Shown: in pieces, positions 4,943 to 61,029 of the stretch
Numbering within the stretch: position 1 is the first letter of the stretch
Layout of the letters: every line of letters begins with the position of its first letter
The notes under the pieces: model-generated
Database searches by the model: none
Told to the model about the DNA's origin: nothing
Seen by the model: only the letters and a program-made list of their open reading frames with translations
Translations under genes and position numbers: made by a program
NCBI GenBank assembly: GCA_035457005.1
Contig: DATICB010000001.1
Span: forward strand, 3,246 to 67,245
Source of the DNA: Patescibacteria group bacterium
GTDB taxonomy: Bacteria; Patescibacteriota; Microgenomatia; Levybacterales; UBA12049
Direction of reading: 5' to 3'
DNA length: 64,000 nucleotides

Positions 4943-7243
4943 TTAGTCTCCCGTGCATTTATTATTTGTTTGACCGCATGCGGTTACCAAGCTTCTCACC
5001 CATAAATTATAATTGAATGACCACTCATCGCCGGTTGTTCCTCCGTCTGGATAATCAAAGAAGTTCATAACATCGCCACAGGTAAATGTAATCGTCTGAT
5101 TTCCTGACACCATAGATTGTGGTGTTGTTGGATTTTGATTGCGACACGTTCGCAAAATATTGTAATCAAGTCCATTAATAACGTCATCTTGTCCCAAATT
5201 GCCTGTCCTGCCATCGACAATATCTCCCGGCAGAGGATAGACAGTAACGGTATTGGCAACACCAGAAGTAAGGGATATTTTTTCACCTTTACTACTGCTT
5301 TTACGTGCAAAGGCTTTGAGGAATTGAGGCACGCCAATATACACACGAAATTCTTTGGCAGTGGTGTAGGGAAGGACGCCAACATTAATAGGACTACTCA
5401 CAAACAGTCCAGTTGAGGAGTTATACGTGAGCGTTGTAGTTGTCCTGGTAGACGCATTGCCGCTTTGGTCAAAAATAACCACTCCTACATTGTTGCGGGT
5501 CTGATGGGCTGGATTTTTATTCTCAAAGTCCCCTGTCCCAATTCCTGGTAATTTGACATTTAGGGTAACTGTTGTTGTTTTACAAACAGTTGTTGGGATG
5601 TAGGTAGTTGGGCTGCTGTATGGACCGGTACAGGTATTGGTTTGTACTTTGTACGCTGCACCAAAGTTTTTTGCATTACTGTCATAACAACTTGTTCCCA
5701 AACTTCTGCTTGCTTTTAAGGATGAAGAAACAGTAAAAGCAGTACTTGTTGAGGAAGTGTTGCACTCATTGTATTCATCTTTCCCACTGACATCTCTGTG
5801 GAACCACCAATCAAGAATGTATTTGGTTGCACCACTTTTTGCCTTCACATTTGCCTTCACCCCAGCAAGTGTTGTCCCCGAGCAAACAGGGGAGAGGACA
5901 AGATCTGATTGTGCCGGCTTATCAGTACAGACATTAGGAGTATTTGATGTAAGCTGTTGTTGTTTTGGGTCGGCTTTGGTTGGGTCGTAGGGAGCACAGC
6001 AGGTATAATTTGATCCTTTAGCACATTTATAGGTAGGGTCTGCCTTTGTCCCTGCTTGGCAGGATGTTTGACACGCATCTGCGGTCTTGTATACTGTCTC
6101 ACAAGATGGCGCTGGAGCTGGTGTTGAGGTGGGAGCTTTGAGAGTTGGGTTTTGGGAGGCCACATAGCAACATTTTATATTCACACCGACACTTGCCATA
6201 CAGCCACTACTATTAGTGATTTCATGTGAACCACTCACCCCTAAATCTTGTTGAACCATCGTGCTACAGGGAATGGGTTGTATATTTGGACAGGTACCTG
6301 CTATTTGTGTAGCTATGTTAAATGGATCGAAGTATGGAGAACAAAAATTGACCATTACTGGGGACCATTGGTGAGAATAGGCACTTCCAGTAAATACGGC
6401 AGGGTAGTAACAGATGCCTTTCTCTGTTGCGCCATTTACAGTTCCACTACAAGAGTTTGCACCAGATGGAAGAGGCGCAGCTGTTGGGGTAGGGGTGATG
6501 GTAGGCTTGCCAGGGATACAACATTTTGCCACTGGAGTTCCTGGCAACGAGGTACTACAGGCACTTTCATTCACCGAAGATTCTGCTGCACCACTTGTGT
6601 TAGTCAAAGCGTCACATGAGGGGAGTGCTGTAGAATTGTTTGCTTTTGTTGCTACGTTTTTAGGGTTATTTGTATAGGTAGAGCCATAATTATTATGATA
6701 ATAACAAAGTCCATTATTTGTTGGTCCACAAGATTTTGCTGCATAAACTGTCCCATCAGACCCAGTTACTGGTACAGATTTTGGAGTAGGAGCGGCTTTG
6801 GGAGCAGTGTAGCCACATTTCCCATCTTGGTAATGACAGTTTGCTTTTGTTGTATAGGTACTGCATGTATTGCCACTAACATCACATATTTGCTGTCCTA
6901 CACATTGGCTATACTGCGTGTAATTATGGCAGTCTCTTTTTGCAAGGCAGCAAATATTACCAGATTTAGTAGGACATTCAGTGGTTTTAGCAGTGTAAAT
7001 ATCTGCACAATTCTCTGCAGATGTACAGAACGCTCCAGTTGCAACAGTTGAACATGTAACGGTGGTTGTACTTCCACCACCACCTTCAACCATGGCATGT
7101 TGTTGGGTGTTGGTTTGTTGGGGCAAGACTTGGACAGTCACAATAGTCCCGACAATCAAAATAAGGACAAGAAGGACTCCAAGGGTTCGGGAGTGAGTGG
7201 GAGAAAAAAGAAAGTTTTTTAGCTGTTGTAATTTTTCTTTCAT
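4943..7243 (-). CDS. large secreted Cys/Thr/Asn-rich protein (766 aa) with a C-terminal dockerin-like segment
   Basis: N-terminal TM anchor and about 60 Cys. C-terminal DDVINGLDYNIL resembles a dockerin Ca-binding repeat. Confidence 0.55.
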   Translation of the reverse strand: MKEKLQQLKNFLFSPTHSRTLGVLLVLILIVGTIVTVQVLPQQTNTQQHAMVEGGGGSTTTVTCSTVATGAFCTSAENCADIYTAKTTECPTKSGNICCLAKRDCHNYTQYSQCVGQQICDVSGNTCSTYTTKANCHYQDGKCGYTAPKAAPTPKSVPVTGSDGTVYAAKSCGPTNNGLCYYHNNYGSTYTNNPKNVATKANNSTALPSCDALTNTSGAAESSVNESACSTSLPGTPVAKCCIPGKPTITPTPTAAPLPSGANSCSGTVNGATEKGICYYPAVFTGSAYSHQWSPVMVNFCSPYFDPFNIATQIAGTCPNIQPIPCSTMVQQDLGVSGSHEITNSSGCMASVGVNIKCCYVASQNPTLKAPTSTPAPAPSCETVYKTADACQTSCQAGTKADPTYKCAKGSNYTCCAPYDPTKADPKQQQLTSNTPNVCTDKPAQSDLVLSPVCSGTTLAGVKANVKAKSGATKYILDWWFHRDVSGKDEYNECNTSSTSTAFTVSSSLKASRSLGTSCYDSNAKNFGAAYKVQTNTCTGPYSSPTTYIPTTVCKTTTVTLNVKLPGIGTGDFENKNPAHQTRNNVGVVIFDQSGNASTRTTTTLTYNSSTGLFVSSPINVGVLPYTTAKEFRVYIGVPQFLKAFARKSSSKGEKISLTSGVANTVTVYPLPGDIVDGRTGNLGQDDVINGLDYNILRTCRNQNPTTPQSMVSGNQTITFTCGDVMNFFDYPDGGTTGDEWSFNYNLWVRSLVTACGQTNNKCTGD

Positions 7244-9420: not shown

Positions 9421-10472
9421 TGCCAACCTCTCAAAAACACGCTGAATATCAATATTTAGATCTTCTGAAAGAAGCACTCAAAGACGGGATTATTAAAATA
9501 GACCGAGGGACAGATATAAAACTTCATAGTTTGTTTGGTCGACAGACACGCTACGATTTATCGCAAGGATTTCCACTGCTCACAACAAAAAAAGTGTACT
9601 GGAAGGGAGTCATTCACGAGTTGTATTGGTTTATGTCAGGGCAAACAAATATTAAATATTTAGTTGATAATAACGTGCATATTTGGGACGACTATCCGTA
9701 CAAAATATATAAGACAAAAATGAGTCAGCATCATTCTGTCATTGCGAGCGAAGCGAAGCAATCTAATAAAAATAAGATTGCCGTGTCGTCTTCGACTCCT
9801 CGCAATGACATTATTTTAACAAAAGAAGAATTTATAGAAAAAATAAAGACAAATAATACGTTTGCCAAAAAATGGGGAAATCTGCCAAGAATTTATGGAG
9901 AAATGTGGCGCAAATGGCCTACCAAGACAGGCCGAACAATAGATCAGCTTGCATGGGTTTTACAGGAAATGAAAGAAGATCCTGATGCAAAAAACCTTAT
10001 TGTCACCTCGTGGAATCCAGAATATATGTATACCATGGCGACTTACGAAGACGCGAATAGGTTTCCAATTTGCCACAACATGTATCAAATCAGCAATCGC
10101 AATGGCTATTTGGACTTACAGCTGTATCAGCGCAGTGCAGATTTATTTTTAGGAGTGCCATTTAATATTGCGTCTTATGCGCTTTTGACTATGATTCTGG
10201 CAAAAATTGCAGGACTCAAGCCTGGTGTTTTTACCCATACATTTGGCGATGTGCATGTGTATGACGATCATGTCGCGGCAGTAAAAGAGCAATTAAAGAG
10301 AAAACCAAGACCATTCCCGAAAATTAAGTTTACTCATGATTTTAAAACGCTCGATGCGTTTCGACCAGAATACGTTGAATTAGTCAATTATGATCCATAC
10401 CCAACTATTAAAGCAGAATTGACTGTTGCAGGTGGACTTTTTGATAAAAAAACAGGGAAGATGGCAGGGTAA
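9421..10472 (+). CDS. thyA: thymidylate synthase ThyA with a ~50-aa small-domain insertion that contains an R1 repeat
   Basis: QYLDLL, IHELYWF, YGEMWRKW, LQLYQRSADLFLGVPFNIASYALL. An in-frame TTG at 9384 is also possible as the start. Confidence 0.85.
9738..9809. repeat. R1 element in frame inside thyA
   Basis: GTCATTGCGAGCGAAGCGAAGCAATC...GATTGCCGTGTCG...CTCGCAATGAC, translated VIASEAKQSNKNKIAVSSSTPRND. Confidence 0.75.
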
Positions 10473-11354: not shown

Positions 11355-11963
11355 ATGAAAATTTCAGCAATTGCAATTATTTCTAAAAATCGGGGATTGG
11401 GATTTGAGAATCATCTTCTTTTCCATATTCCTGGTGAGCTCCCACGATTAAAAGCAATTACCATGGGCCATCCAGTTGTTATGGGAAGAAAAACGCATGA
11501 GTCAATTGGGAGAATTTTGCCAGGAAGACTCAACATTGTTATTACCAGAAAAGGTGGAGAGGATGTGCCGGGTTTGCTTATTTTTGTTGACAGTTTGGAA
11601 AAAGCATTGGAGATTGCAAAAGAGAGTGAGGGAAAAAAAGTCAAAAAGTCTTCTTCGAGCAAGCAAAGCGAGTCGAGAAGTGAGTTGTCGACAAGCTCGA
11701 ACAAGAATAAGATTGCCGCGTCGGTCGCCAAAGGCGAACCTCCTCGCAATGACAACGAAGGCGAAATCTTTATCTTAGGTGGGGGACAAATTTTTGCAGA
11801 AAGCCTGTCAATAACAGATCGTTTGTATTTGACAATTGTTGATACAGAAGTACCAGCAGATACTTTTTTTCCAGACTACGAAAAAGAATTTACAAAAGTT
11901 ATTACTGAGGAGAAGAAAACAGATTGGGAATACCCCTACACATTTCTTACTTTAGAAAAATAA
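11355..11963 (+). CDS. folA: dihydrofolate reductase with a ~45-aa insertion built from R2 plus an R1 half
   Basis: ISAIAIISKNRGLG..LPRLKAITMGHPVVMGRKTHESIG, IFILGGGQIF. Confidence 0.85.
   Translation: MKISAIAIISKNRGLGFENHLLFHIPGELPRLKAITMGHPVVMGRKTHESIGRILPGRLNIVITRKGGEDVPGLLIFVDSLEKALEIAKESEGKKVKKSSSSKQSESRSELSTSSNKNKIAASVAKGEPPRNDNEGEIFILGGGQIFAESLSITDRLYLTIVDTEVPADTFFPDYEKEFTKVITEEKKTDWEYPYTFLTLEK
11651..11686. repeat. R2 element (CTTCTTCGAGCAAGC.AAGCGAGTCGAGAAG) in frame in folA
   Basis: Also present in recR at 38804-38836; translated SSSSKQSESRSE. Confidence 0.6.
11705..11752. repeat. R1 3' half-element in frame in folA
   Basis: AATAAGATTGCCGCGTCG...CCTCGCAATGAC, translated NKNKIAASVAKGEPPRND. 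Confidence 0.65.
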
Positions 11964-27397: not shown

Positions 27398-28828
27398 ATG
27401 GATTCGCCGTTTATTTTTATTCTTTTTGGAGCAACAGGGGATCTAGCAAAAAATAAATTAATTCCTTCACTGTTTACATTATTTAAGAAAAAAAAGTTGC
27501 CGGAAAATTTTTACATATTTGGTTTTGGGAGACGTGAAATAACAGACACAGACTTCGCTGCATTTTTTCCAGAATTTGCTCTCGATTCTTTATGGACTGA
27601 TTTTGCCAAGCATTTGCAATATCAACAAGGATTTTTTGATGAAGCAAATGGTTACATGCAACTTGTTGAAAAATTACAAAAAATAGACAAACAAATGGGC
27701 GCATGTGTCACTCGCATTTTTTACTTAGCAACACCGCCAAATAATTATGATGCTATTTTAGATAACTTAGTCAGTTCTAGGCTTTCAGAAGGATGTGGGC
27801 AAGGCAGTAGTAAATGGACGCGAATTGCCATTGAAAAACCGTTTGGAAAAGATTTACAAACAGCAAAAGCATTGGATGAAAAATTAGCAAAAAATTTTGA
27901 AGAAAGACAGATCTTTCGAGTCGACCATTATTTGGGAAAAGAGACATTGCAAAACTTACTTGTTTTCCGTTTTGCTAATGGTATTTTTGATCCTATCTGG
28001 AATAAAGAATATATTGATCATGTACAAATTACCTGGAATGAGAAAAAAGGAATAGGGACGCGGGGAAAGTTTTTCGATGGCGTCGGCATGCTTCGGGACG
28101 TTGGACAAAATCATCTTATGCAACTTATTGCTGCTGTTGCAATGGAAATGCCGCGAAGTTTTTCTAGAGAAGGTGTCCGAGATGCCAGGTCACAAGCAAT
28201 AAAAAATATTAGCTGTATCGAGCCAGACGAAGTTGCATCGCGAGTTGTGAGAGGACAATACAAGGGGTATCTTGATGAAAAGAATGTTGCATCAAATTCT
28301 TCAACCGAAACATTTGTTGCAATGAAATTTTTTGTTAATTCAGAAAGATTTGCTCATATACCGTTTTATGTGAGAGCAGGAAAAGCGATGGGAGACAATA
28401 GTGTGCAAATTCATATTGTTTTTAAACAAACGTGCCACATTCTCTTTAAAGAAATTGGTTGTCCAGAAGAGGGAAATGTGTTGACTATTCGCATACAGCC
28501 AAATGAAGGAATTTCACTTAAAATTATTGCGAAAACACCAAGTACGCACTTGTCGTTGCAACCGGTAGATATGCATTTTACCTACAATGAGTCATTCGGA
28601 ACAAAAGGGTCTGATGCATACGAAAAAATTCTTACAGATATTATGACAGGAGATCAAATGCTATTTAATCGGTCAGACGAATTAGAGGCATCATGGACAT
28701 TTATTGAAAAAATTATCAAAGGATGGGAAAAATCAGGCGAGAAAATTACGTCATACGCGGTTGGTTCTGCTCGTCCTGATGCAGCAGATGCACTGATCGA
28801 AAAAGACGGAAGAAAATGGATAGAGTAA
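27398..28828 (+). CDS. zwf: glucose-6-phosphate 1-dehydrogenase
   Basis: LFGATGDLAKNKLIPSLF, RVDHYLGKE. Confidence 0.9.
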   Translation: MDSPFIFILFGATGDLAKNKLIPSLFTLFKKKKLPENFYIFGFGRREITDTDFAAFFPEFALDSLWTDFAKHLQYQQGFFDEANGYMQLVEKLQKIDKQMGACVTRIFYLATPPNNYDAILDNLVSSRLSEGCGQGSSKWTRIAIEKPFGKDLQTAKALDEKLAKNFEERQIFRVDHYLGKETLQNLLVFRFANGIFDPIWNKEYIDHVQITWNEKKGIGTRGKFFDGVGMLRDVGQNHLMQLIAAVAMEMPRSFSREGVRDARSQAIKNISCIEPDEVASRVVRGQYKGYLDEKNVASNSSTETFVAMKFFVNSERFAHIPFYVRAGKAMGDNSVQIHIVFKQTCHILFKEIGCPEEGNVLTIRIQPNEGISLKIIAKTPSTHLSLQPVDMHFTYNESFGTKGSDAYEKILTDIMTGDQMLFNRSDELEASWTFIEKIIKGWEKSGEKITSYAVGSARPDAADALIEKDGRKWIE

Positions 28829-28839
28829 TTTCGTAATCT

Positions 28840-28868
28840 TGATTTTTGTAAGACAAATAGCTACTATA
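28840..28868 (+). promoter_or_regulatory. putative promoter TTGATT-17-TACTAT
   Basis: The -10 box lies about 7 nt before the leader-peptide ATG at 28874. Confidence 0.3.
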
Positions 28869-28873
28869 AAATT

Positions 28874-28987
28874 ATGAATGATCGCGTTTTAGTTACTAAT
28901 AATTATTCGCCCAACAAAACCTCCTAGATTTTTGCTGGGAGATTTTGCGTACTCATGTTGTAGACCTCCCAGCACGGGAGGTTTTTT
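28874..28987 (+). promoter_or_regulatory. attenuator-like leader: 17-codon ORF (MNDRVLVTNNYSPNKTS) overlapping three mutually exclusive hairpins and ending in a terminator
   Basis: Hairpin 1 is CCTCC..GGGAG. Hairpin 2 is CTGGGAG(28935-41)..CTCCCAG(28966-72). Hairpin 3, the terminator, is CCTCCC-AGCAC-GGGAGG followed by TTTTTT (28965-28987). Confidence 0.45.
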
Positions 28988-29020
28988 AGTGGGATACCAT
29001 GTAGTTTTGTGTTTACATGT

Positions 29021-29093
29021 GTCACGGTTGGATAGCTCTTTGAGCATTCAACGTGACCCTGTTAGATGCGAAGCTATCTAACAGGGGAGGTGA
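29021..29093 (+). promoter_or_regulatory. conserved bipartite 5' leader (hairpin A, hairpin B, GGGGAGGTG SD), copy 1
   Basis: A is GTCACG-GTTGGATAG..CATTCAA-CGTGAC. B is CTGTTAGAT-GCGAAGC-TATCTAACAG. Then GGGGAGGTGAAAAAATATG. Confidence 0.55.
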
Positions 29094-29099
29094 AAAAAT

Positions 29100-29423
29100 A
29101 TGAATCCAATTATTTGTACAATTTGTCAAAAAACAAATCATTTACCGGAAAAACAAGTTATTGTTATGGCAAATTTTGCACAGAAGTATCAAGCAGAAAG
29201 AGCGTTATTTGATATTCAAAAATCACACATTGCTATTGTCTGGCAGAGAATTTTTGTCCGGTCAGATTTTATAACACTTATTTTGTCATTGCATGGCATA
29301 AAAGATATTGTTCATCTGCAAAGTCTTTACATTGAAAGTATGTGTCAAAATAATAATGCATTAACAATTGATGTTGTTTCGCAAAAAGTACATCAAGAAA
29401 AATTATTGTCTGCTTTGAGCTAG
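29100..29423 (+). CDS. hypothetical protein (107 aa)
   Basis: ORF with a strong SD. Confidence 0.45.
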   Translation: MNPIICTICQKTNHLPEKQVIVMANFAQKYQAERALFDIQKSHIAIVWQRIFVRSDFITLILSLHGIKDIVHLQSLYIESMCQNNNALTIDVVSQKVHQEKLLSALS

Positions 29424-29469
29424 TTTTATCTCTTGTTTTAGAGAAAAAAAGTGTGTAGTTTTAATAAAT

Positions 29470-30444
29470 ATGCTAATTGGTTTTCTCGGACTTGGGAAAA
29501 TGGGTGGCCGAATGGTGAGTAAATTATTGCAAGGCGGACACGATGTTGTGGCGTGGAATAGGTCGATAGACGTTTCAGAAGAATTTGTCAAACAATATGC
29601 TTTGAGCAAAGCGACCAGCCTGCCGGCGCGGCAGGGAAGTTCCCACATTCGTTCGAATAATATCTCCCTTGTTAAAAATATTTCTGATTTTGTTTTATTA
29701 AAAAATAAACCTCATGTTTTTTGGTCAATGGTTCAATATGGAGAACCGACCAAACAGGTTCTTTTGCAACTTCTTACTACTGCAGAAAAAGGTGATGTGG
29801 TTATTGATGGGGCAAATTCTTTTTACTTGGATACACAAAAACAGTACGAAGCATTTACTAAAAAAGGGATTCACTTTTTGGGAATTGGTGTAAGCGGGGG
29901 AATTCTGGCACCAGTCAATGGATTTCCTCTCATGGCAGGGGGATCAGAGACAGGATATAAAAAAATCCAACCAATTCTTGATACACTCAGTAAACCACAT
30001 GGAGGTCATGCGTATTTTGGGAAAGGCGGAGTTGGACATTTTATTAAAATGGTTCACAACGGCGTGGAGTACGGGATGATGCAAGCAATTGGTGAGGGAT
30101 TTGGTGTTTTGGAAAAGGGACCGTATTTGTTGGATTTGGAAAAAGTTGCAGATCTTTGGACAAAAGAGACAATTGTTTCTGGGTTCCTCATGGATTGCGC
30201 AAGAGATGCATTGGTAAAAGATCCACAACTTGCCAAGACGGCAGGATTTATAGAAGAAAATGGGGAAGCAAAATGGACAATTGCATTGGCAAAAAAGCTA
30301 CGGGTTCCAATTGAGATTATTGAAGCTTCATTACAATTTAGACAAAAATCACAAAAAAGTTTGATTATCCAAAAGTCATTTGCTGCAAAAATGGTTGCCG
30401 CCCTCAGACACGAATTTGGTGGACATAAGACAAAGGAGAAATAA
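29470..30444 (+). CDS. gnd: 6-phosphogluconate dehydrogenase (decarboxylating), short form, with an insertion after the Rossmann fold
   Basis: GFLGLGKMGGRM, HFIKMVHNGVEYGMMQAIGEG. Confidence 0.75.
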   Translation: MLIGFLGLGKMGGRMVSKLLQGGHDVVAWNRSIDVSEEFVKQYALSKATSLPARQGSSHIRSNNISLVKNISDFVLLKNKPHVFWSMVQYGEPTKQVLLQLLTTAEKGDVVIDGANSFYLDTQKQYEAFTKKGIHFLGIGVSGGILAPVNGFPLMAGGSETGYKKIQPILDTLSKPHGGHAYFGKGGVGHFIKMVHNGVEYGMMQAIGEGFGVLEKGPYLLDLEKVADLWTKETIVSGFLMDCARDALVKDPQLAKTAGFIEENGEAKWTIALAKKLRVPIEIIEASLQFRQKSQKSLIIQKSFAAKMVAALRHEFGGHKTKEK

Positions 30445-30636
30445 ATGGCCAACAAACCTAAGGAGTATGGTGTTGCACCCGATTCTCCACGAACGCAGGA
30501 TAGTGTTACTAGAAGAATAGGAGAATTAGGTGATGCAACACGGCGGAGAGGTTTGGACATTTATTCCTTTTTAAGACTCCGTCGATTGGGGCAAAAAATT
30601 GATAATGGTGATTACCATGAGGACAGATTTCATTGA
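30445..30636 (+). CDS. hypothetical small protein
   Basis: ORF only. Confidence 0.25.
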   Translation: MANKPKEYGVAPDSPRTQDSVTRRIGELGDATRRRGLDIYSFLRLRRLGQKIDNGDYHEDRFH

Positions 30637-37089: not shown

Positions 37090-37161
37090 GCTACAGTTAG
37101 ATAGTCCTTTGGACATCTAGCGTAGCCCCGTTAGATGCAAAGCTATCTAACGGGGGAGGTG
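37090..37161 (+). promoter_or_regulatory. conserved bipartite 5' leader, copy 3 (upstream of ybaB)
   Basis: A is GCTAC-AGTTAGATAG..CATCTAGC-GTAGC. B is CCGTTAGAT-GCAAAGC-TATCTAACGG. Then GGGGGAGGTGAA. Confidence 0.55.
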
Positions 37162-37172
37162 AATTACTGATT

Positions 37173-38405: not shown

Positions 38406-39077
38406 ATGAAAATTCCACGAGCAGTACAAAATCTTATTGAGTCGTTTGAAAAACTGCCTGGCGTTGGGCCAAAGTCTGCTCAGCGGCTTACGTTTTATTT
38501 ACTGCATGTCCCACAAGGCGAATTGGATACCTTTGCAAAAAGCCTAACAGAGCTAAAAACAGGCACCAAATTGTGCTCTATTTGCATGTCAATTGACGAA
38601 ACAGACCCATGCTCAATTTGCTCGGATGGCCTTCGGGATCACGCAACAATTTGTGTTGTCGAGCAGCCTTTGGATGTCTTGGCTTTGGAAAAATCAGGAA
38701 CCTATAAAGGAATCTATCACGTGCTACACGGGAGAATTGATCCACTCAATAATTTGGGGCCAGATGAGATTTATGTGGGGAAGTTATTCGACAGGATAAA
38801 AAATTCTTCTTCGAGCAAGCCTAGCGAATCGAGAAGTCTTGAGGAAAGTTCTCGACTTCGCTCGAACGAGAACACTCATATTAAAGAAATAATTCTAGCT
38901 ACCAATCCTACCATGGAAGGCGAGGCAACAGCAATGTATATTACCAAACAATTAAAAGCATTAGGTTTTGCTGGTGCTATAACAAGAATTGGAAGAGGTT
39001 TGCCGGTTGGTGCGGATTTGGAATATGCAGACGAAATTACTTTGCAGCGCGCTATGGAAGGCAGAAGCGAAGTATAA
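38406..39077 (+). CDS. recR: recombination protein RecR with an in-frame R2-derived insertion
   Basis: LPGVGPKSAQRL, C-x2-C...C-x2-C zinc finger, Toprim region. Confidence 0.85.
   Translation: MKIPRAVQNLIESFEKLPGVGPKSAQRLTFYLLHVPQGELDTFAKSLTELKTGTKLCSICMSIDETDPCSICSDGLRDHATICVVEQPLDVLALEKSGTYKGIYHVLHGRIDPLNNLGPDEIYVGKLFDRIKNSSSSKPSESRSLEESSRLRSNENTHIKEIILATNPTMEGEATAMYITKQLKALGFAGAITRIGRGLPVGADLEYADEITLQRAMEGRSEV
38804..38875. repeat. R2 element plus palindromic extension, in frame in recR
   Basis: TTCTTCTTCGAGCAAGCCTAGCGAATCGAGAAG..., translated NSSSSKPSESRSLEESSRLRS. Confidence 0.6.
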
Positions 39078-40377: not shown

Positions 40378-41055
40378 ATGAGAATCGGTGTGTTTGGCGG
40401 CAGATTTGATCCAATTCACAATGGTCACTTGGCTGTTGCGAAAGAAGTTTTGAAAATGGGTAAAGCAGACGAAGTGTGGTTAAGTATAGAAAATCAGCAC
40501 CAGTGGCGGCCAATTATTGCAGCAGCTAATGATAGAAAAAAAATGGCAGAATTGGCAATAGATTCAATTACAGATGTCATCCTGAGCAATGCGAAGGATA
40601 TATATTCTTCGGCTATGTCTCAGAATGACAAAAATAAGATTGCCGTGTCGCCTGAGGCTCCTCGCAATGACATCCAAAATAATTTTAAAGTAGATATGAC
40701 GCCGGTTGAGCTGGGTGGGACAACAGAAACAATACAAGTCGTTAGGCAGTTGCGAAAAAAATATCCAGAGCATGAATTTATTTTCATTGTTGGGTCGGAT
40801 CAATTGCCAACATTTCATAAATGGTCACACTGGGAAGATTTAAAAAAAGAAGTGCAATTTTTAATTGTTACCAGAAAGGGCTCGCCTTTGGATAATATTC
40901 CTAAAAATGCTTCTGTTATTACCGATCCAACATACGAACCACTCGATGACAGCGCGACGCGAATACGGGAATTTCTGCATGTTGGTACATCTATCTCTGG
41001 CCTTGTCCCAAAAGCAGTGGAGGAGTATATTAAAGAGCACAAGCTGTACCAGTGA
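40378..41055 (+). CDS. nadD: nicotinate-nucleotide adenylyltransferase with an in-frame R3 unit and R1 half-element insertion
   Basis: GVFGGRFDPIHNGHL. Confidence 0.85.
   Translation: MRIGVFGGRFDPIHNGHLAVAKEVLKMGKADEVWLSIENQHQWRPIIAAANDRKKMAELAIDSITDVILSNAKDIYSSAMSQNDKNKIAVSPEAPRNDIQNNFKVDMTPVELGGTTETIQVVRQLRKKYPEHEFIFIVGSDQLPTFHKWSHWEDLKKEVQFLIVTRKGSPLDNIPKNASVITDPTYEPLDDSATRIREFLHVGTSISGLVPKAVEEYIKEHKLYQ
40575..40671. repeat. R3 unit (40575-40600) plus R1 3' half (40631-40671), in frame in nadD
   Basis: GTCATCCTGAGCAATGCGAAGGAT ... AAAATAAGATTGCCGTGTCG...CTCGCAATGAC, translated VILSNAKDI...DKNKIAVSPEAPRND. Confidence 0.7.
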
Positions 41056-41179: not shown

Positions 41180-42007
41180 ATGTTTGACTTAGATTACACA
41201 AAAAAAGCACAAGAAATTCAGGATTGGATTGCCACAACAGTGCGTAGTGCAGGATTTGAAAAAGTTATTTTGGCAGTGTCTGGTGGTGTGGACAGCGCTG
41301 TATCGCTTAGTCTAGCAGTAAAGGCATTGGGAAAAGAAAATGTGTACGCAGTACTTTTGCCATATGGAACATTAAGTTCGGCTTCACTTGAACATGGAAA
41401 ATTGGTTGTTGAGTCTGCTGGTCTTCCAAAAGATCATGTGTTTGTCCGCGATATCCAATCAGGAGTTGATAAGCTATGGTCTGTCATTGCGAACGAAGCG
41501 AAGCAATCTGATACAAATGACGAGATTGCCGCGTCGCAAGCTCCTCGCAATGACACTTCAATTCGCCGAGGCAATATGATGGCAAGAGTGCGCATGATAT
41601 ATTTATTTGATTTGGCAAAAAGCTTGGGGGCGTTAGTTGTTGGAACAGAAAATAAAAGTGAGCATTATTTGGGCTATTTTACGCGTTTTGGAGACGAAGC
41701 ATCGGACATAGAACCAATTCGATCGTTATACAAAACACAAGTGTGGGAAATGGCAAAAAGCTTGGGAGTTCCGAAAGAAATTATCGAGAAAAAACCTTCT
41801 GCAGGGCTTTGGGAAAATCAATCAGATGAAGGAGAATTTGGTTTTTCTTATACAGATGCAGACAAAGTGTTGTATTTTTCTTTTGAAGAAAAAAAATCTC
41901 AAGAAGAAATAATTGCCTTAGGGTTTGATAAAAAATTAGTAGAAAATGTCTTGGGCTTTGCTCGCAAAAATGATTTTAAACACCACGTTCCATACATTTT
42001 TGAATAA
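41180..42007 (+). CDS. nadE: NH3-dependent NAD+ synthetase with an in-frame R1 insertion
   Basis: VILAVSGGVDSAV, RRGNMMARVRM. Confidence 0.85.
   Translation: MFDLDYTKKAQEIQDWIATTVRSAGFEKVILAVSGGVDSAVSLSLAVKALGKENVYAVLLPYGTLSSASLEHGKLVVESAGLPKDHVFVRDIQSGVDKLWSVIANEAKQSDTNDEIAASQAPRNDTSIRRGNMMARVRMIYLFDLAKSLGALVVGTENKSEHYLGYFTRFGDEASDIEPIRSLYKTQVWEMAKSLGVPKEIIEKKPSAGLWENQSDEGEFGFSYTDADKVLYFSFEEKKSQEEIIALGFDKKLVENVLGFARKNDFKHHVPYIFE
41483..41553. repeat. R1 element in frame in nadE
   Basis: GTCATTGCGAACGAAGCGAAGCAATC...GATTGCCGCGTCGCAAGCTCCTCGCAATGAC, translated VIANEAKQSDTNDEIAASQAPRND. Confidence 0.75.
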
Positions 42008-56946: not shown

Positions 56947-57465
56947 TTACCAGGCACTACTGGCAAAGACAGTGACATCTATTTTACAGGGACAAGAAAA
57001 TTGAAGAGGCTCATTTGAATTACTGCTTGAAGGTTGGGTTTTGTATGAAAAAAGGAGGAGTTGTTTTTTACCATCGTTGTCTTTAAGATACCCCCAGCTC
57101 GATGCTCCTGGTCCATCTGCTTCTAAATTGGTATCTGGTAAAAATTTACTGGTTGCTAAGCTATTTACATCTTCAAAATGTCCAAGCATTGGCTTGTCAC
57201 TCGTTATCTGTGCATGGATACTGAGTCCTGAAAGTGTGCCATAAAAAGTTGTTTGCGTATCTTTTGCAGGATGAGACCATGGTGCAGATGGGTACCAAAC
57301 AGCAGCGTCGACAAGTAAATTATATTCATATGTGTTGGTAAGAGGAGAGGGGAAAGGCACTGTGTGATTTAGGAAAAGTTTGTATCCTGCAAGCAAAACA
57401 ATAACAAGAAAGCATATAAAAAGAGAAAGTAAAAAATTGGAGAAATAAAATTTCTGTTTTGCCAT
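56947..57465 (-). CDS. signal-anchored hypothetical protein
   Basis: N-terminal TM helix. Confidence 0.45.
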   Translation of the reverse strand: MAKQKFYFSNFLLSLFICFLVIVLLAGYKLFLNHTVPFPSPLTNTYEYNLLVDAAVWYPSAPWSHPAKDTQTTFYGTLSGLSIHAQITSDKPMLGHFEDVNSLATSKFLPDTNLEADGPGASSWGYLKDNDGKKQLLLFSYKTQPSSSNSNEPLQFSCPCKIDVTVFASSAW

Positions 57466-58366: not shown

Positions 58367-59869
58367 ATGAATAAATATTTTTTTTCAATAAAAATTGTAA
58401 CATTTTTTTTACTTTTTGTAAGTTTGGTCTCAAGCGGATGGGAACCTTTTTTCTTGCATGGCCCACACTTGGTGAAAGTGTATGCTACAGCCCCACTTCC
58501 TGCATATCGTGCGACTGGTGCGTTTACTGCCGGAACAGGCGCCATAACACCCCCTTTTCCCGCAGGTATGCAGGCAGATGACGTATGCTTGCTTGCTGCC
58601 AGTTCAGAAAATCAAGCAATTACACTTTCCAGTGCTCAAGGTTTTGCAGAGGTTCCGACATGGTCTCCCCAAAGTGCAGGTACCGCCGCGACCGATCCAG
58701 GATCACGTTTGGCTCTTTTTTGGAAACGAACCGTTGGTGGAGATACTGCGCCAACGGTTGCAGATTCGGGAAATAATACAGAAGGAGTGATTCATTGTTT
58801 TTCTGGGGTAGTGAACACAGGGAATCCATGGGATACAGGTGCAGGTGGCAATGATAGTGCTGCTAATGATACAACAGGTACTATCCCGGGCGCTACGACC
58901 ACAACAGACAACGATTTAGTGGTCTTGGTTATATCAACAAGTAACAATCTAACTGCATCAACAAATTGTTCTGGCTGGGCGAATGCAAATTTGGCCGCCA
59001 TTACAGAAAGACAGGATAATAGCAATACCGTAGGTCTTGGTGGTGGGTCTTGCATGGCAACGGGAACAAAAGCTACAGCGGGTTCGTACACAACAACTAC
59101 GGTAACTATGTCGGCAACAACATTCAAGGGCGCAATATCCTTGGCTCTTAAGCCACCACAGCTGTCAACCGTTACGACACAAGCTGCGTCAAGCATAAAG
59201 GACACAACAGCAATAGCAAATGGCACTATTACGGCAACAGGTGGAGGAAATGCTGACGAGGAAGGCTTTGTCTATGACGCGACGTCACACAGTTTGCCAG
59301 GAAACGTTGCTCCAGGGTCTTCTGGGTATGCTAGCTCGGCACAAAACATAGGGAGCTTTGGTGCCGGTGCGTTTACGACAAGCTTGACTGGATTGAGTGG
59401 CGCAACGACTTATTTCGGCAGAGCTTATGCGCACAACTCAGCGGGATATAGCTACGGTGGGGAGGTCAGCTTTACAACCGGTATAATTTCTGTTTCGGTT
59501 TCAGACGGAGTTATAGCATATGGACTTATTGCGCAAAACGTATCGAAAGACACCACTGCAAGCGGATTAAATGACACGCAAACAGCAACCAACAATGGGA
59601 ATATTGCAGAAGACTTTAATATTAAGGGACAAGACAGCTCTTGTCCATGGACACTTGCTTCAAGTACAGCTACGGACCAATATAAGCATGAATTTTCGAT
59701 AAATAGTGGAAGTAATTGGACTGCGCTTACAACAAATTATCAGTCTTTAGCAAGTAACATTGCATCGAATGGGACACAAACATTTGACTTACGTCTGACA
59801 ACCCCAACAGGGACAAGCTGTTTTACACAACAATCAGTAGATGTAACTATTCAAGCAGTCGCTCATTAA
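58367..59869 (+). CDS. secreted Thr/Gly/Ala-rich surface protein; C-terminal ~130-aa domain paralogous to 60532-61029
   Basis: Signal peptide. The C-terminus ISVSVSDG...TQTFDL..TQQSVDVTIQAVAH is about 60% identical to the downstream protein. Confidence 0.6.
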   Translation: MNKYFFSIKIVTFFLLFVSLVSSGWEPFFLHGPHLVKVYATAPLPAYRATGAFTAGTGAITPPFPAGMQADDVCLLAASSENQAITLSSAQGFAEVPTWSPQSAGTAATDPGSRLALFWKRTVGGDTAPTVADSGNNTEGVIHCFSGVVNTGNPWDTGAGGNDSAANDTTGTIPGATTTTDNDLVVLVISTSNNLTASTNCSGWANANLAAITERQDNSNTVGLGGGSCMATGTKATAGSYTTTTVTMSATTFKGAISLALKPPQLSTVTTQAASSIKDTTAIANGTITATGGGNADEEGFVYDATSHSLPGNVAPGSSGYASSAQNIGSFGAGAFTTSLTGLSGATTYFGRAYAHNSAGYSYGGEVSFTTGIISVSVSDGVIAYGLIAQNVSKDTTASGLNDTQTATNNGNIAEDFNIKGQDSSCPWTLASSTATDQYKHEFSINSGSNWTALTTNYQSLASNIASNGTQTFDLRLTTPTGTSCFTQQSVDVTIQAVAH

Positions 59870-60531: not shown

Positions 60532-61029
60532 ATGAGATTTCTTTTCATTGTTTTTTCTATTGTCGTTGTGTCGCTATTTGGTTTTGTCTCTTTTGCGCAA
60601 GCAGCAACAACGGCATCGGTTGCAGCAACAGTTACTGTTCAAAATATTTCCGTGAGTGTTTCGGATGGATCGGTAACATATGGTACATTAGGGGTTAATT
60701 CATCTGCTGGAACAAATGGATCAGACACTCAAACAGCAACCAACAATGGTAATGTTGCAGAAGACTTAAATATTAAAGGACAAAATAGCGCAACATGGAC
60801 ACTCGCAAATTCTGCAGCATCAGATGCCTACGTCCATCAGTTTTGTGTTGCAACCTGCGGGTCAGCACCAACAAATTACACAAAACTAACAACTGCATAC
60901 CAAGCACTTGCGACGAATATCGCATCCAATGGAACACAAACATTTGATTTATATATTACGACTCCAACATCGTCCTCGAGCTTTACGCAACAATCTGTTG
61001 ACGTAACTGTGCAAGCAGTTATACACTAA
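60532..61029 (+). CDS. small secreted surface protein (SCPU/WxL-like beta-domain; paralog of the 58367 C-terminal domain)
   Basis: Signal peptide. Shared ISVSVSDG, TQTATNNGN.AED.NIKGQ, WTLA, TQTFDL, TQQSVDVT.QAV.H. Confidence 0.55.
   Translation: MRFLFIVFSIVVVSLFGFVSFAQAATTASVAATVTVQNISVSVSDGSVTYGTLGVNSSAGTNGSDTQTATNNGNVAEDLNIKGQNSATWTLANSAASDAYVHQFCVATCGSAPTNYTKLTTAYQALATNIASNGTQTFDLYITTPTSSSSFTQQSVDVTVQAVIH

Follow-up and report, generated by a model that had tools for sequence, protein, structure and literature searches.

Attenuators of the trp, his and thr type (trpL, hisL, thrL, leuL, pheL, ilvL) place a short open reading frame (ORF) over the first segment of an RNA switch between the pairings 1:2, 2:3 and 3:4, which is combined with an intrinsic terminator. 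Antitermination follows a stall close to where the ORF ends, full translation or no translation leads to termination, and runs of codons for the amino acid product precede its biosynthetic genes. The same layout occurs in the window, the 64,000-nt stretch of DNA from a Patescibacteria group bacterium analysed here, where a 17-codon ORF starting at position 28874 and a set of competing hairpins ending in a T-run at 28987 separate zwf from the next gene. Most members of the family to which this copy belongs likewise carry runs of Ser codons ahead of serine biosynthetic genes. The element is probably an attenuator of transcription controlled by a ribosome on a conserved leader peptide, which would be translated from a leaderless or nearly leaderless mRNA, and the supply of seryl-tRNA is its probable signal. 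This reading is carried by what was observed of the sequence anatomy, its conservation and covariation, its thermodynamic switching and its association with particular genes.

Several features set the family apart from the classical attenuators. Its members are predicted to be leaderless or to have a leader of 1-4 nt, usually with no Shine-Dalgarno (SD) sequence, and their hosts belong to the Patescibacteria or Candidate Phyla Radiation (CPR). Many divergent genomes share the first 13 residues of the peptide, whereas in classical leaders the regulatory codons alone are kept, and the 3′ arm of the terminator is often also the SD of the regulated gene. The element matches none of the Rfam leader families (Trp_leader, His_leader, Thr_leader, Leu_leader, T-box and others) in sequence or structure. 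At gathering score the window gave only tRNAs, and positions 28700-29600 gave no match at E ≤ 10; a gathering-score search of 12 related loci also returned only tRNAs, with no leader family and no T-box among them.

The poly-Cys "Cys ribulon" of mycobacteria (Canestrari et al., bioRxiv 10.1101/834739) has a leaderless short ORF (sORF) as its first cistron, as is predicted here, in which a stall on codons of the scarce amino acid opens an RNA structure and activates the downstream genes of the operon. As proposed for the present family, one sensor at several loci per genome or clade makes up a regulon without a protein regulator. However, the mycobacterial elements work at the level of translation, where they release a ribosome-binding site (RBS) from sequestration, and their conserved peptide is limited to the Cys run. 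In the present family, terminator/antiterminator switching is the main read-out, with SD occlusion added in about half of the leaders, and the codons are those of Ser, joined to a conserved 13-residue motif; there is no homology between the two systems. Transcription of serine genes is also coupled to the charging of tRNA-Ser through a terminator and antiterminator in T-boxes (serA, Paenibacillus; PMC8002221), but there an RNA of about 200 nt reads uncharged tRNA directly, whereas here the reader would be a translating ribosome.

Arrest peptides such as TnaC, SpeFL, SecM and ErmCL/ErmBL share with this family an upstream ORF whose amino acid sequence, and not its codons alone, is conserved. 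In both, a stall at the end of the conserved part, here predicted beside a Pro codon, remodels the RNA downstream, and in the terminator-less class of the family the motif is followed by a C-rich, G-poor stretch resembling the rut site masked or unmasked by TnaC. Here, however, the arrest is a prediction, and the chain counts just 13 residues from the initiator Met. Neither the motif nor the element is described in the literature searched, which also holds no leader-peptide attenuator of serine genes. Because Rfam gives no match, the codons are different, the peptide is conserved, the read-out combines terminator and SD, and the phylum is another, the element is a member of no described family; it is an undescribed family, widely conserved in Patescibacteria/CPR.

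A short ORF and competing hairpins downstream of zwf

The zwf gene (27398-28828, forward strand, as are the promoter, leader and genes that follow; Pfam G6PD_N and G6PD_C) ends with a TAA stop codon at 28826-28828. Beyond it lies a weak sigma-70-like promoter (28839-28867) made up of TTGATT (28839-28844), a 17-nt spacer and TACTAT (28862-28867), and 6 nt separate the end of the -10 box from the ATG at 28874. Transcription is predicted to start at A28874 or adjoining it. The leader ORF (28874-28927) comprises 17 codons and a TAG stop codon (28925-28927) and encodes MNDRVLVTNNYSPNKTS, of which codons 1-13 (28874-28912) hold the conserved motif M-N-x-R-V-x-x-x-N-N-Y-S-P.

Four RNA segments extend from the end of this ORF to the T-run. 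Segment 1 (28921-28927, CTCCTAG), the 5′ strand of the anti-antiterminator, holds the codon of Ser17 and the stop codon and forms 7 bp with segment 2 (28933-28941, TGCTGGGAG, core CTGGGAG at 28935-28941), which has either segment 1 or segment 3 as its partner. Segment 3 (28963-28974) is GACCTCCCAGCA, that is, CCTCCCAG (28965-28972) preceded by GA and followed by CA, and it is used twice, with 28966-28974 as the 3′ strand of the antiterminator and 28963-28970 as the 5′ arm of the terminator. The last part (28976-28987) consists of segment 4, GGGAGG at 28976-28981 (to 28983 with the next TT), and six T at 28982-28987, which form the 3′ arm of the terminator and its U-tract. An intrinsic terminator, GACCTCCC-AGCAC-GGGAGGTT plus the T-run, thus stands between the leader ORF and the next gene.

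When folded with RNAfold and compared with shuffled sequences, hairpin 1:2 has a free energy of -9.8 kcal/mol (z -3.1), hairpin 2:3 of -20.5 kcal/mol (z -5.4), hairpin 3:4 of -13.9 kcal/mol (z -5.5) and the entire leader of -35.3 kcal/mol (z -4.7); for each of the last three, none of 200 shuffles was equal. Pairings 2:3 and 3:4 are mutually exclusive through the segment 3 that they share. A consensus hairpin scan reported 1:2 and missed the 3:4 terminator, which a separate scan and RNAfold both detect. The ORF, the three hairpins, the T-run and the promoter elements therefore lie where the initial annotation had placed them, with folds that outdo their shuffles. The minimum free energy (MFE) structure of the free window RNA is a long hairpin in which 2:3 is nested within 1:4, rather than the combination of 1:2 with 3:4, and this nested fold still puts a stem ahead of the U-tract. 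Neither the sequence nor the scan shows a second terminator from the zwf stop (28828) to 28987, and since nothing else could stop them before 28987, transcripts of zwf end at the attenuator. No promoter was found by the scan in 28988-29099.

In the proposed mechanism, transcription would begin on the ATG at 28874 or right beside it, and a ribosome would load on the 5′-terminal AUG and translate MNDRVLVTNNYSPNKTS. If translation were smooth, the ribosome at the UAG (28925-28927) would cover segment 1 and the first bases of segment 2, segments 3 and 4 would pair, and RNA polymerase would terminate in the T-run at about 28987, leaving the downstream genes off. If the ribosome stalled with its A site in codons 12-17 or so, segment 1 would be hidden and segment 2 free, the 2:3 antiterminator would form, segment 4 would have no partner, and read-through to the gene of a 107-aa protein and to gnd would turn them on. 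RNA that is not translated, such as read-through from zwf in which the AUG is internal and has no SD, would fold into 1:2 plus 3:4, or into the nested 1:4/2:3 hairpin, and terminate, by which the element would also end the zwf transcript. The signal would most likely be the supply of charged tRNA-Ser, sensed through Ser12 and Ser17 in the window and through Ser12 and Ser14-17 in most relatives, and the conserved 13-residue nascent chain would serve as a built-in pause or arrest module.

Conservation and modelled switching across the family

Relatives of this zwf were found in metagenome-assembled genomes (MAGs) of Microgenomates, Levyibacteriota, Shapirobacteria and the "Patescibacteria group". 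The ProRS encoded in the window shares 100% identity with a protein from an NCBI "Patescibacteria group bacterium" MAG, and the host is accordingly placed among the CPR bacteria near the Microgenomates. The two closest zwf loci have the same element, with the leader peptides MNSRVDIYNNYSPNKAS (L001) and MNDRVILTNNYSPSASLLL (L002), each followed by a stop codon. The stems differ by subfamily, being of the CCTCC/GGGAG type in the window, L001, L121 and L131 and of the CCCTGC/GCGGGG type in L002 and L068. The four-segment layout is retained in L002 as CCCTGC, GCGGGG, CCCCGC and GCGGGG plus a T-run. By sequence comparison, then, the stems covary between subfamilies and the four-segment layout is constant, and the ORF is kept wherever the hairpins are.

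When metagenomes were scanned for M-N-x-R-x4-N-N-Y-S-P by means of a degenerate pattern, 104 stretches matched. About 97 of these encode M-N-x-R-[VT]-[DN]-[VFIP]-[LYT]-N-N-Y-S-P-[SHQN] with a tail of 0-18 residues, and the statistics given below refer to 76 unique leaders. In all, about 100 metagenomic and genomic loci have this small ORF. Positions 5-8, which the search pattern left free, are still conserved. Arg4 is encoded by CGA (30 leaders), AGA (29), CGT (8), CGC (7) and CGG (2), Leu8 by TTA, CTC, TTG, CTA and CTT, and Val5 by any of the four GTN codons; at Ser12 and Pro13 every third base occurs. This variety of synonymous codons indicates that it is the peptide, and not the RNA, that is under selection. 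Two leaders (L129 and L130) equal that of the window except for a synonymous change from TCG to TCT at Ser12 in L130. The tail is hypervariable and shrinks to 0-2 residues in some leaders.

SerB-like homologues drawn without the peptide pattern provided an independent sample of eight distinct contexts, two of which (L134 and L137) have the leader. The leader of L134 is the canonical MNDRVDVLNNYSPSQSSRLRGLC with NNYSP. That of L137, MNSRVIVTNNFSPSSCSSGIKGSVFVV, has Phe for Tyr11 (NNFSP), is preceded by an AAGGAG SD and lies ahead of serB-serA-serC; looser peptide patterns applied across 144 loci gave NNFSP in L137 as the single variant. The presence of the leader in just two of eight SerB contexts indicates a lineage-restricted element. 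An exact look-up of the ten longest leader peptides in a collection of 15 billion proteins found none of them, and their absence indicates that annotation overlooks these sORFs and the operon structure that results.

The element is not bound to zwf, since most loci have it ahead of serB/serA or other genes, with a consensus promoter of its own. For 75 leaders the upstream sequence was long enough to look for a promoter. Of these, 44 agree with the consensus at 9 or more of its 12 positions, and in 38 of the 44 the -10 hexamer ends 6-11 nt (mode 9) ahead of the ATG. An SD-like 4-mer precedes the leader ATG in just 1/76. Together, the -10 spacing and the scarcity of SD sequences suggest mRNAs that are leaderless or have a leader of 1-4 nt, with the 5′ ends placed by promoter geometry.

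A canonical intrinsic terminator, together with a competing antiterminator, is present in 43/76 unique leaders (class A). The equivalent of segment 2 starts 56-67 nt from the ATG in 36/42 class-A leaders, a figure to be taken as a position statistic only, as the longest-complement search for segment 2 is crude and made A/T-rich mispicks in a few sequences, the window included. This position is constant although that of the stop codon varies from nt 51 to nt 93. A MAFFT alignment of seven subfamily leaders had its stems out of register and was left unused; each sequence was instead folded separately under constraint, with a shuffle control. In this analysis, pairing of the first N nucleotides of 42 class-A leaders was forbidden to mimic the ribosome. 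With no mask, the terminator was the MFE structure in 74% of the leaders. It fell to 17-29% with 42-57 nt masked, which corresponds to an A site at about codons 11-16, and rose to 97-100% with at least 66 nt masked and to 100% with the ribosome at the stop codon. When the sequence from nt 52 to segment 3 was shuffled and 51 nt were masked, the terminator formed in 98%, against 17% for the real sequences. In the thermodynamic model, the logic of the switch has the three states of a classical attenuator: off when untranslated, on with a localized stall, and off with full translation. In the window copy, masks of up to 60 nt yield the 2:3 antiterminator and a 63-nt mask yields the terminator. The choice between terminator and antiterminator thus depends on the modelled ribosome position in the window and in the family. 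Constraint folding, conservation and covariation together support the proposal of the initial annotation that a leaderless short ORF and mutually exclusive hairpins bring about ribosome-mediated attenuation.

The terminator has a second part in many class-A leaders. In 22-25 of 41, the next start codon lies 4-12 nt past the G-rich 3′ arm, and with the arm in the position of an SD, the terminator doubles as the SD and also occludes it. The window copy does not have this RBS-freeing arrangement, as the gene of the 107-aa protein starts 116 nt past the terminator arm and has its own SD. A GTG at 28989-28991, 7 nt past the GGGAGG arm, occupies the spot at which serB starts in many relatives and opens a 30-codon ORF (28989-29081). 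Relatives retain a GTG at that spot, with ORFs of 6-13 codons that are unrelated in sequence; the GTG at 28989 may be a vestigial start or belong to a coupling ORF.

The remaining 33/76 leaders have no terminator (class B; L025, L027, L035, L064, L099 and others). Most have His14, a tail of 1-4 residues and Vut_1 or SerB downstream. The 3′ half of the class-B sORF is 33% C and 5% G, and the spacer to the next ATG (27-74 nt) is pyrimidine-rich, with 9% G and no SD. NAC codons make up 51%, compared with 28% in downstream genes (p = 1.8e-8). No structural switch was seen near the next start codon of these leaders, where mean accessibility was 0.55, 0.57 and 0.59 in three ribosome states. Their composition is rut-like and recalls the tnaC/Rho system, which suggests a read-out that is Rho-dependent or works through reinitiation.

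The signal and competing explanations

In more than 70 relatives, the next gene is on the same strand as the leader ORF, mostly after a gap of 27-120 nt. Among 74 leaders whose downstream gene was classified, some 39 stand ahead of SerB or SerA genes, namely those of SerB-like HAD-IB phosphatases (about 18 leaders), SerB-SerA(-ACT) fusions (about 12), other SerB-like HADs (6) and SerA (3, NF008759 above cut-off). Vut_1 transporters follow about 16 leaders and match TIGR00697, "queuosine precursor transporter", above its cut-off; FolC (TIGR01499) follows three, MtrA/ThyA/pterin-binding proteins two, and a PspA-like histidine phosphatase and a GlcD-like FAD oxidase one each. The gene of the 107-aa protein followed by that of a short 6-phosphogluconate dehydrogenase (6PGDH) is the arrangement of the window's lineage, found in the window, L002, L121 and L129-L131. 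In one Levybacteria MAG (L133), a SerB-like gene without the leader is divergent from Vut_1 followed by a RibD_C (DHFR-like) gene, a context that gives a second hint of a link between this Vut_1 clade and folate or pterin metabolism.

The tails of class-A leaders are rich in Ser at positions 14-17, with 28/43, 21/43, 24/43 and 24/43 (65%, 49%, 56% and 56%), falling to 8/40 at position 18 and to about 0-3% from position 19 on, against a background of 5.8% in downstream genes. The enriched positions coincide exactly with the codons of the antitermination window. By class of downstream gene, Ser at positions 14-20 amounts to 45% for SerB-SerA, 42% for the 300-aa HADs, 31% for SerB and 29% for SerA, and is low for Vut_1 (11%) and FolC (12%) leaders. 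Tail Ser codons are TCN rather than AGY in a ratio of 107:28, compared with 757:430 in downstream genes (p = 2.7e-4), and TCN are the Ser codons sensitive to serine starvation in Bacillus subtilis (PMC3862929). On the simplest reading, a shortage of seryl-tRNA would stall the ribosome at Ser codons and in this way turn the genes on.

Several points weigh against this reading. The window copy has just two isolated Ser codons, Ser12 and Ser17, and its downstream genes, for the 107-aa protein and 6PGDH, are not serine genes. Starvation for Ser codons alone leaves the conservation of residues 2-11 unexplained, nor does it account for the motif in Vut_1 and FolC leaders that have no Ser runs. The conserved chain is taken as a built-in pause or arrest module because Ser starvation accounts neither for these residues nor for the Ser-poor leaders, and for the same reason ligand-dependent arrest is kept as the main rival. 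The search pattern forced N2, R4 and N9-P13, and independent support for their invariance comes from L134 and L137 only. The window promoter agrees with the consensus at 8 of 12 positions, under the threshold of the promoter scan; the homologous spot in L001 and L131 has TTGACA-17-TATTAT. In the thermodynamic model 11/42 leaders do not switch, and in the window copy a stall at Ser17 (on) and a ribosome at the stop codon (off) differ by a footprint of 3 nt. As the free window RNA favours the nested 1:4/2:3 fold, termination without translation needs that long hairpin, or the kinetic formation of 1:2 first. Finally, the transcription start, translation of the ORF, termination, the stall and its signal we infer from sequence, conservation and thermodynamic modelling.

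The main rival holds that MNxRVxxxNNYSP itself senses a ligand or condition in the exit tunnel, as TnaC, SpeFL and the Erm leaders do, with a stall at about codon 13-14; the cue would be a small molecule or the state of a translation factor rather than tRNA-Ser charging, and the hairpins would only read out the stall. Conservation of 13 residues is well above what a classical attenuator needs, the variable region starts exactly where the predicted stall window does, and the motif also precedes genes whose leaders lack Ser runs (Vut_1, FolC, the window). One and the same motif is moreover joined to a terminator/antiterminator, to a C-rich, G-poor spacer without a terminator and to an SD-led variant. 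Yet the pile-up of Ser at positions 14-17 that tracks serine genes is left unexplained, and the modelled stall turns the genes on, which for biosynthetic serA/serB fits starvation better than sensing of a product. There is also no candidate ligand, and we know of no likeness between the leader peptide and known arrest peptides. On balance this explanation is rather unlikely, if worth serious consideration. Somewhat more credible, though still less likely than not, is a broader idea in which M-N-x-R-V-D-V-L-N-N-Y-S-P would be a true arrest or pause "peptide aptamer", a single sensor that CPR bacteria have recombined with at least three read-out platforms to form a regulon without a regulator protein. 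One platform would be a terminator/antiterminator with the added effect of hiding the SD, another a Rho-type tract rich in C and poor in G, and the third an SD-led version. The resulting "ribulon" would take in serine and one-carbon metabolism together with a queuosine-precursor-type transporter and, in the genome of the window, genes of the oxidative pentose-phosphate pathway.

The remaining explanations have much less in their favour. The leader could be an independent small gene with a function in trans, exerted by its conserved 14-31-aa peptide, by a terminated RNA of about 115 nt or by both, on the model of peTrpL and rnTrpL in Sinorhizobium; all that the terminator would do is end this gene. 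Trans functions of attenuator-derived peptides and small RNAs do exist (PMC6614838, PMC7298713), and the element has its own promoter, a conserved peptide and a terminator. This is nonetheless quite improbable given a hypervariable tail that goes down to 0-2 residues, a position always on the same strand and directly upstream of a few gene families, a terminator arm that is often the SD of the next gene, and the presence of a specific antiterminator; a trans role would in any case add to the cis role and not exclude it. The initial annotation had pointed to the four Asn codons of the window leader, including an NN pair, and an attenuator stalled at N9, N10 and N14 by a shortage of asparaginyl-tRNA would also give read-through. 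N9 and N10 are invariant in the set, though the search pattern forced them. The NN pair, however, belongs to a motif common to serine, folate and transporter leaders, none of the 76 downstream genes is Asn-related, and enrichment after the motif is of Ser and not of Asn. An A site at N9/N10 masks about 37-40 nt, at which 43-57% of the family leaders still terminate and segment 1 of the window copy would stay free. As no Asn gene is downstream and N9/N10 reach no further than the upstream edge of the stall window, Asn sensing is very unlikely.

A sensor of queuosine status is as unlikely as Asn sensing. The NAY codons for N2, D/N6, N9, N10, Y11 and H14 are read by Q34 tRNAs, the transporters behind about 16 leaders match the queuosine family noted above, and His14 is present in 11 of 16 Vut_1 leaders. 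Most leaders are followed by serine genes, however, and H14 tracks the whole terminator-less class, SerB leaders included. The enrichment in class B is of NAC and not of the Q-sensitive NAU, which fits its general C-rich, G-poor composition, and the terminator class shows no codon bias. A last alternative is a zwf terminator with a chance ORF; that the structure might act only as the zwf terminator had been named at the outset as a possibility. Part of this holds, as the element does end zwf transcripts, which have no other terminator in 28828-28987 and must stop here. It does not do so exclusively: the peptide is conserved at about 100 loci, mostly away from zwf, an extra ORF stands between zwf and the leader in L001, and a plain terminator needs neither segments 1 and 2 nor a specific antiterminator. 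The comparative data effectively refute the zwf-terminator-only reading, and attenuation, probably governed by seryl-tRNA supply, is the reading retained here.

Downstream genes, neighbouring repeats and implications

The first gene after the leader ORF, with the leader RNA alone in between, encodes the 107-aa ferredoxin/ACT-like protein (29100-29423) and is followed by the gene of the short 6PGDH (gnd, 29470-30444; NCBIfam NF007161 above cut-off). The genes in 29100-30444 are presumably under the control of the attenuator, and the order of leader, 107-aa gene and 6PGDH recurs in L129, L130, L131, L002 and L121. The 107-aa protein is lineage-specific, with just nine homologues, and has a conserved CxxC..TNH motif at its N-terminus. 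Its AlphaFold (AF2) model, with a predicted local distance difference test (pLDDT) score of 81.5, has a ferredoxin-like beta-alpha-beta-beta-alpha-beta fold. Foldseek gave weak matches (E 2.5e-4 to 2e-3) to the cap subdomain of FAD-dependent D-lactate dehydrogenase and similar scores for the ACT domains of SerB2, PGDH and aspartokinase, serine-binding ACT domains among them. The model is suggestive of a small-molecule-binding module but is not diagnostic. Directly after the gnd stop lies a 63-aa ORF (30445-30636) with no Pfam or NCBIfam match, which is called as a gene in L129 (3917-4108).

Between the attenuator and the 107-aa gene lies one copy of a two-hairpin repeat of about 71 nt, present in the window at 29024-29094 and 37093-37163 and in L001 at about 5900-5975. 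At its end, each copy supplies the SD (GGAGGTGAA) for the gene that follows, which is that of the 107-aa protein, a ybaB-like ORF after dnaX, or a small ORF in L001. Both stems show compensatory changes from copy to copy, and Rfam has no match to the repeat. A third putative copy at 57150 was a chance match. The initial annotation had proposed that this repeat might add a second regulatory layer in series with the attenuator. That idea does not stand, since the repeat is missing from L129 and L130, which have an identical attenuator ahead of the same gene; the repeat at 29024-29094 is therefore no required second layer. Its absence from these near-identical loci indicates that it behaves like a movable structured 5′-UTR (untranslated region) module.

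Other repeats and RNA genes were also noted. Short dispersed repeats at 9735-9811, 40624-40673 and 41480-41518, and at 11643-11681 and 38799-38837, contain TCTGTCATTGCGAGCGAAGCGAAGCAATC and AAAAATAAGATTGCCGTGTCG and are like miniature palindromic elements. L002 has a related palindrome (5722-5795) that separates the attenuator from the 107-aa gene, and L133 has one upstream of serB. A 66-nt direct repeat (59573-59638 and 60724-60789; 89% identity, spacing 1151 nt) probably sits within tandem paralogous genes. A tRNA cluster at 811-1919 includes Rfam tRNAs at 811-883 and 1812-1883, and the repeat D13/D20 hints at more tRNA-like copies around 1516 and 1885.

A large part of bacterial diversity falls within the CPR/Patescibacteria, hardly any of which are in culture. 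Their genomes are tiny and have few recognisable regulators, and the control of their metabolism is largely obscure. The family would offer them a concrete form of cis-regulation without a regulator protein, in which the pathway most often guarded is that of serine and one-carbon metabolism. As its conservation extends well past the regulatory codons, the leader peptide is also a candidate for a new arrest or pause peptide.

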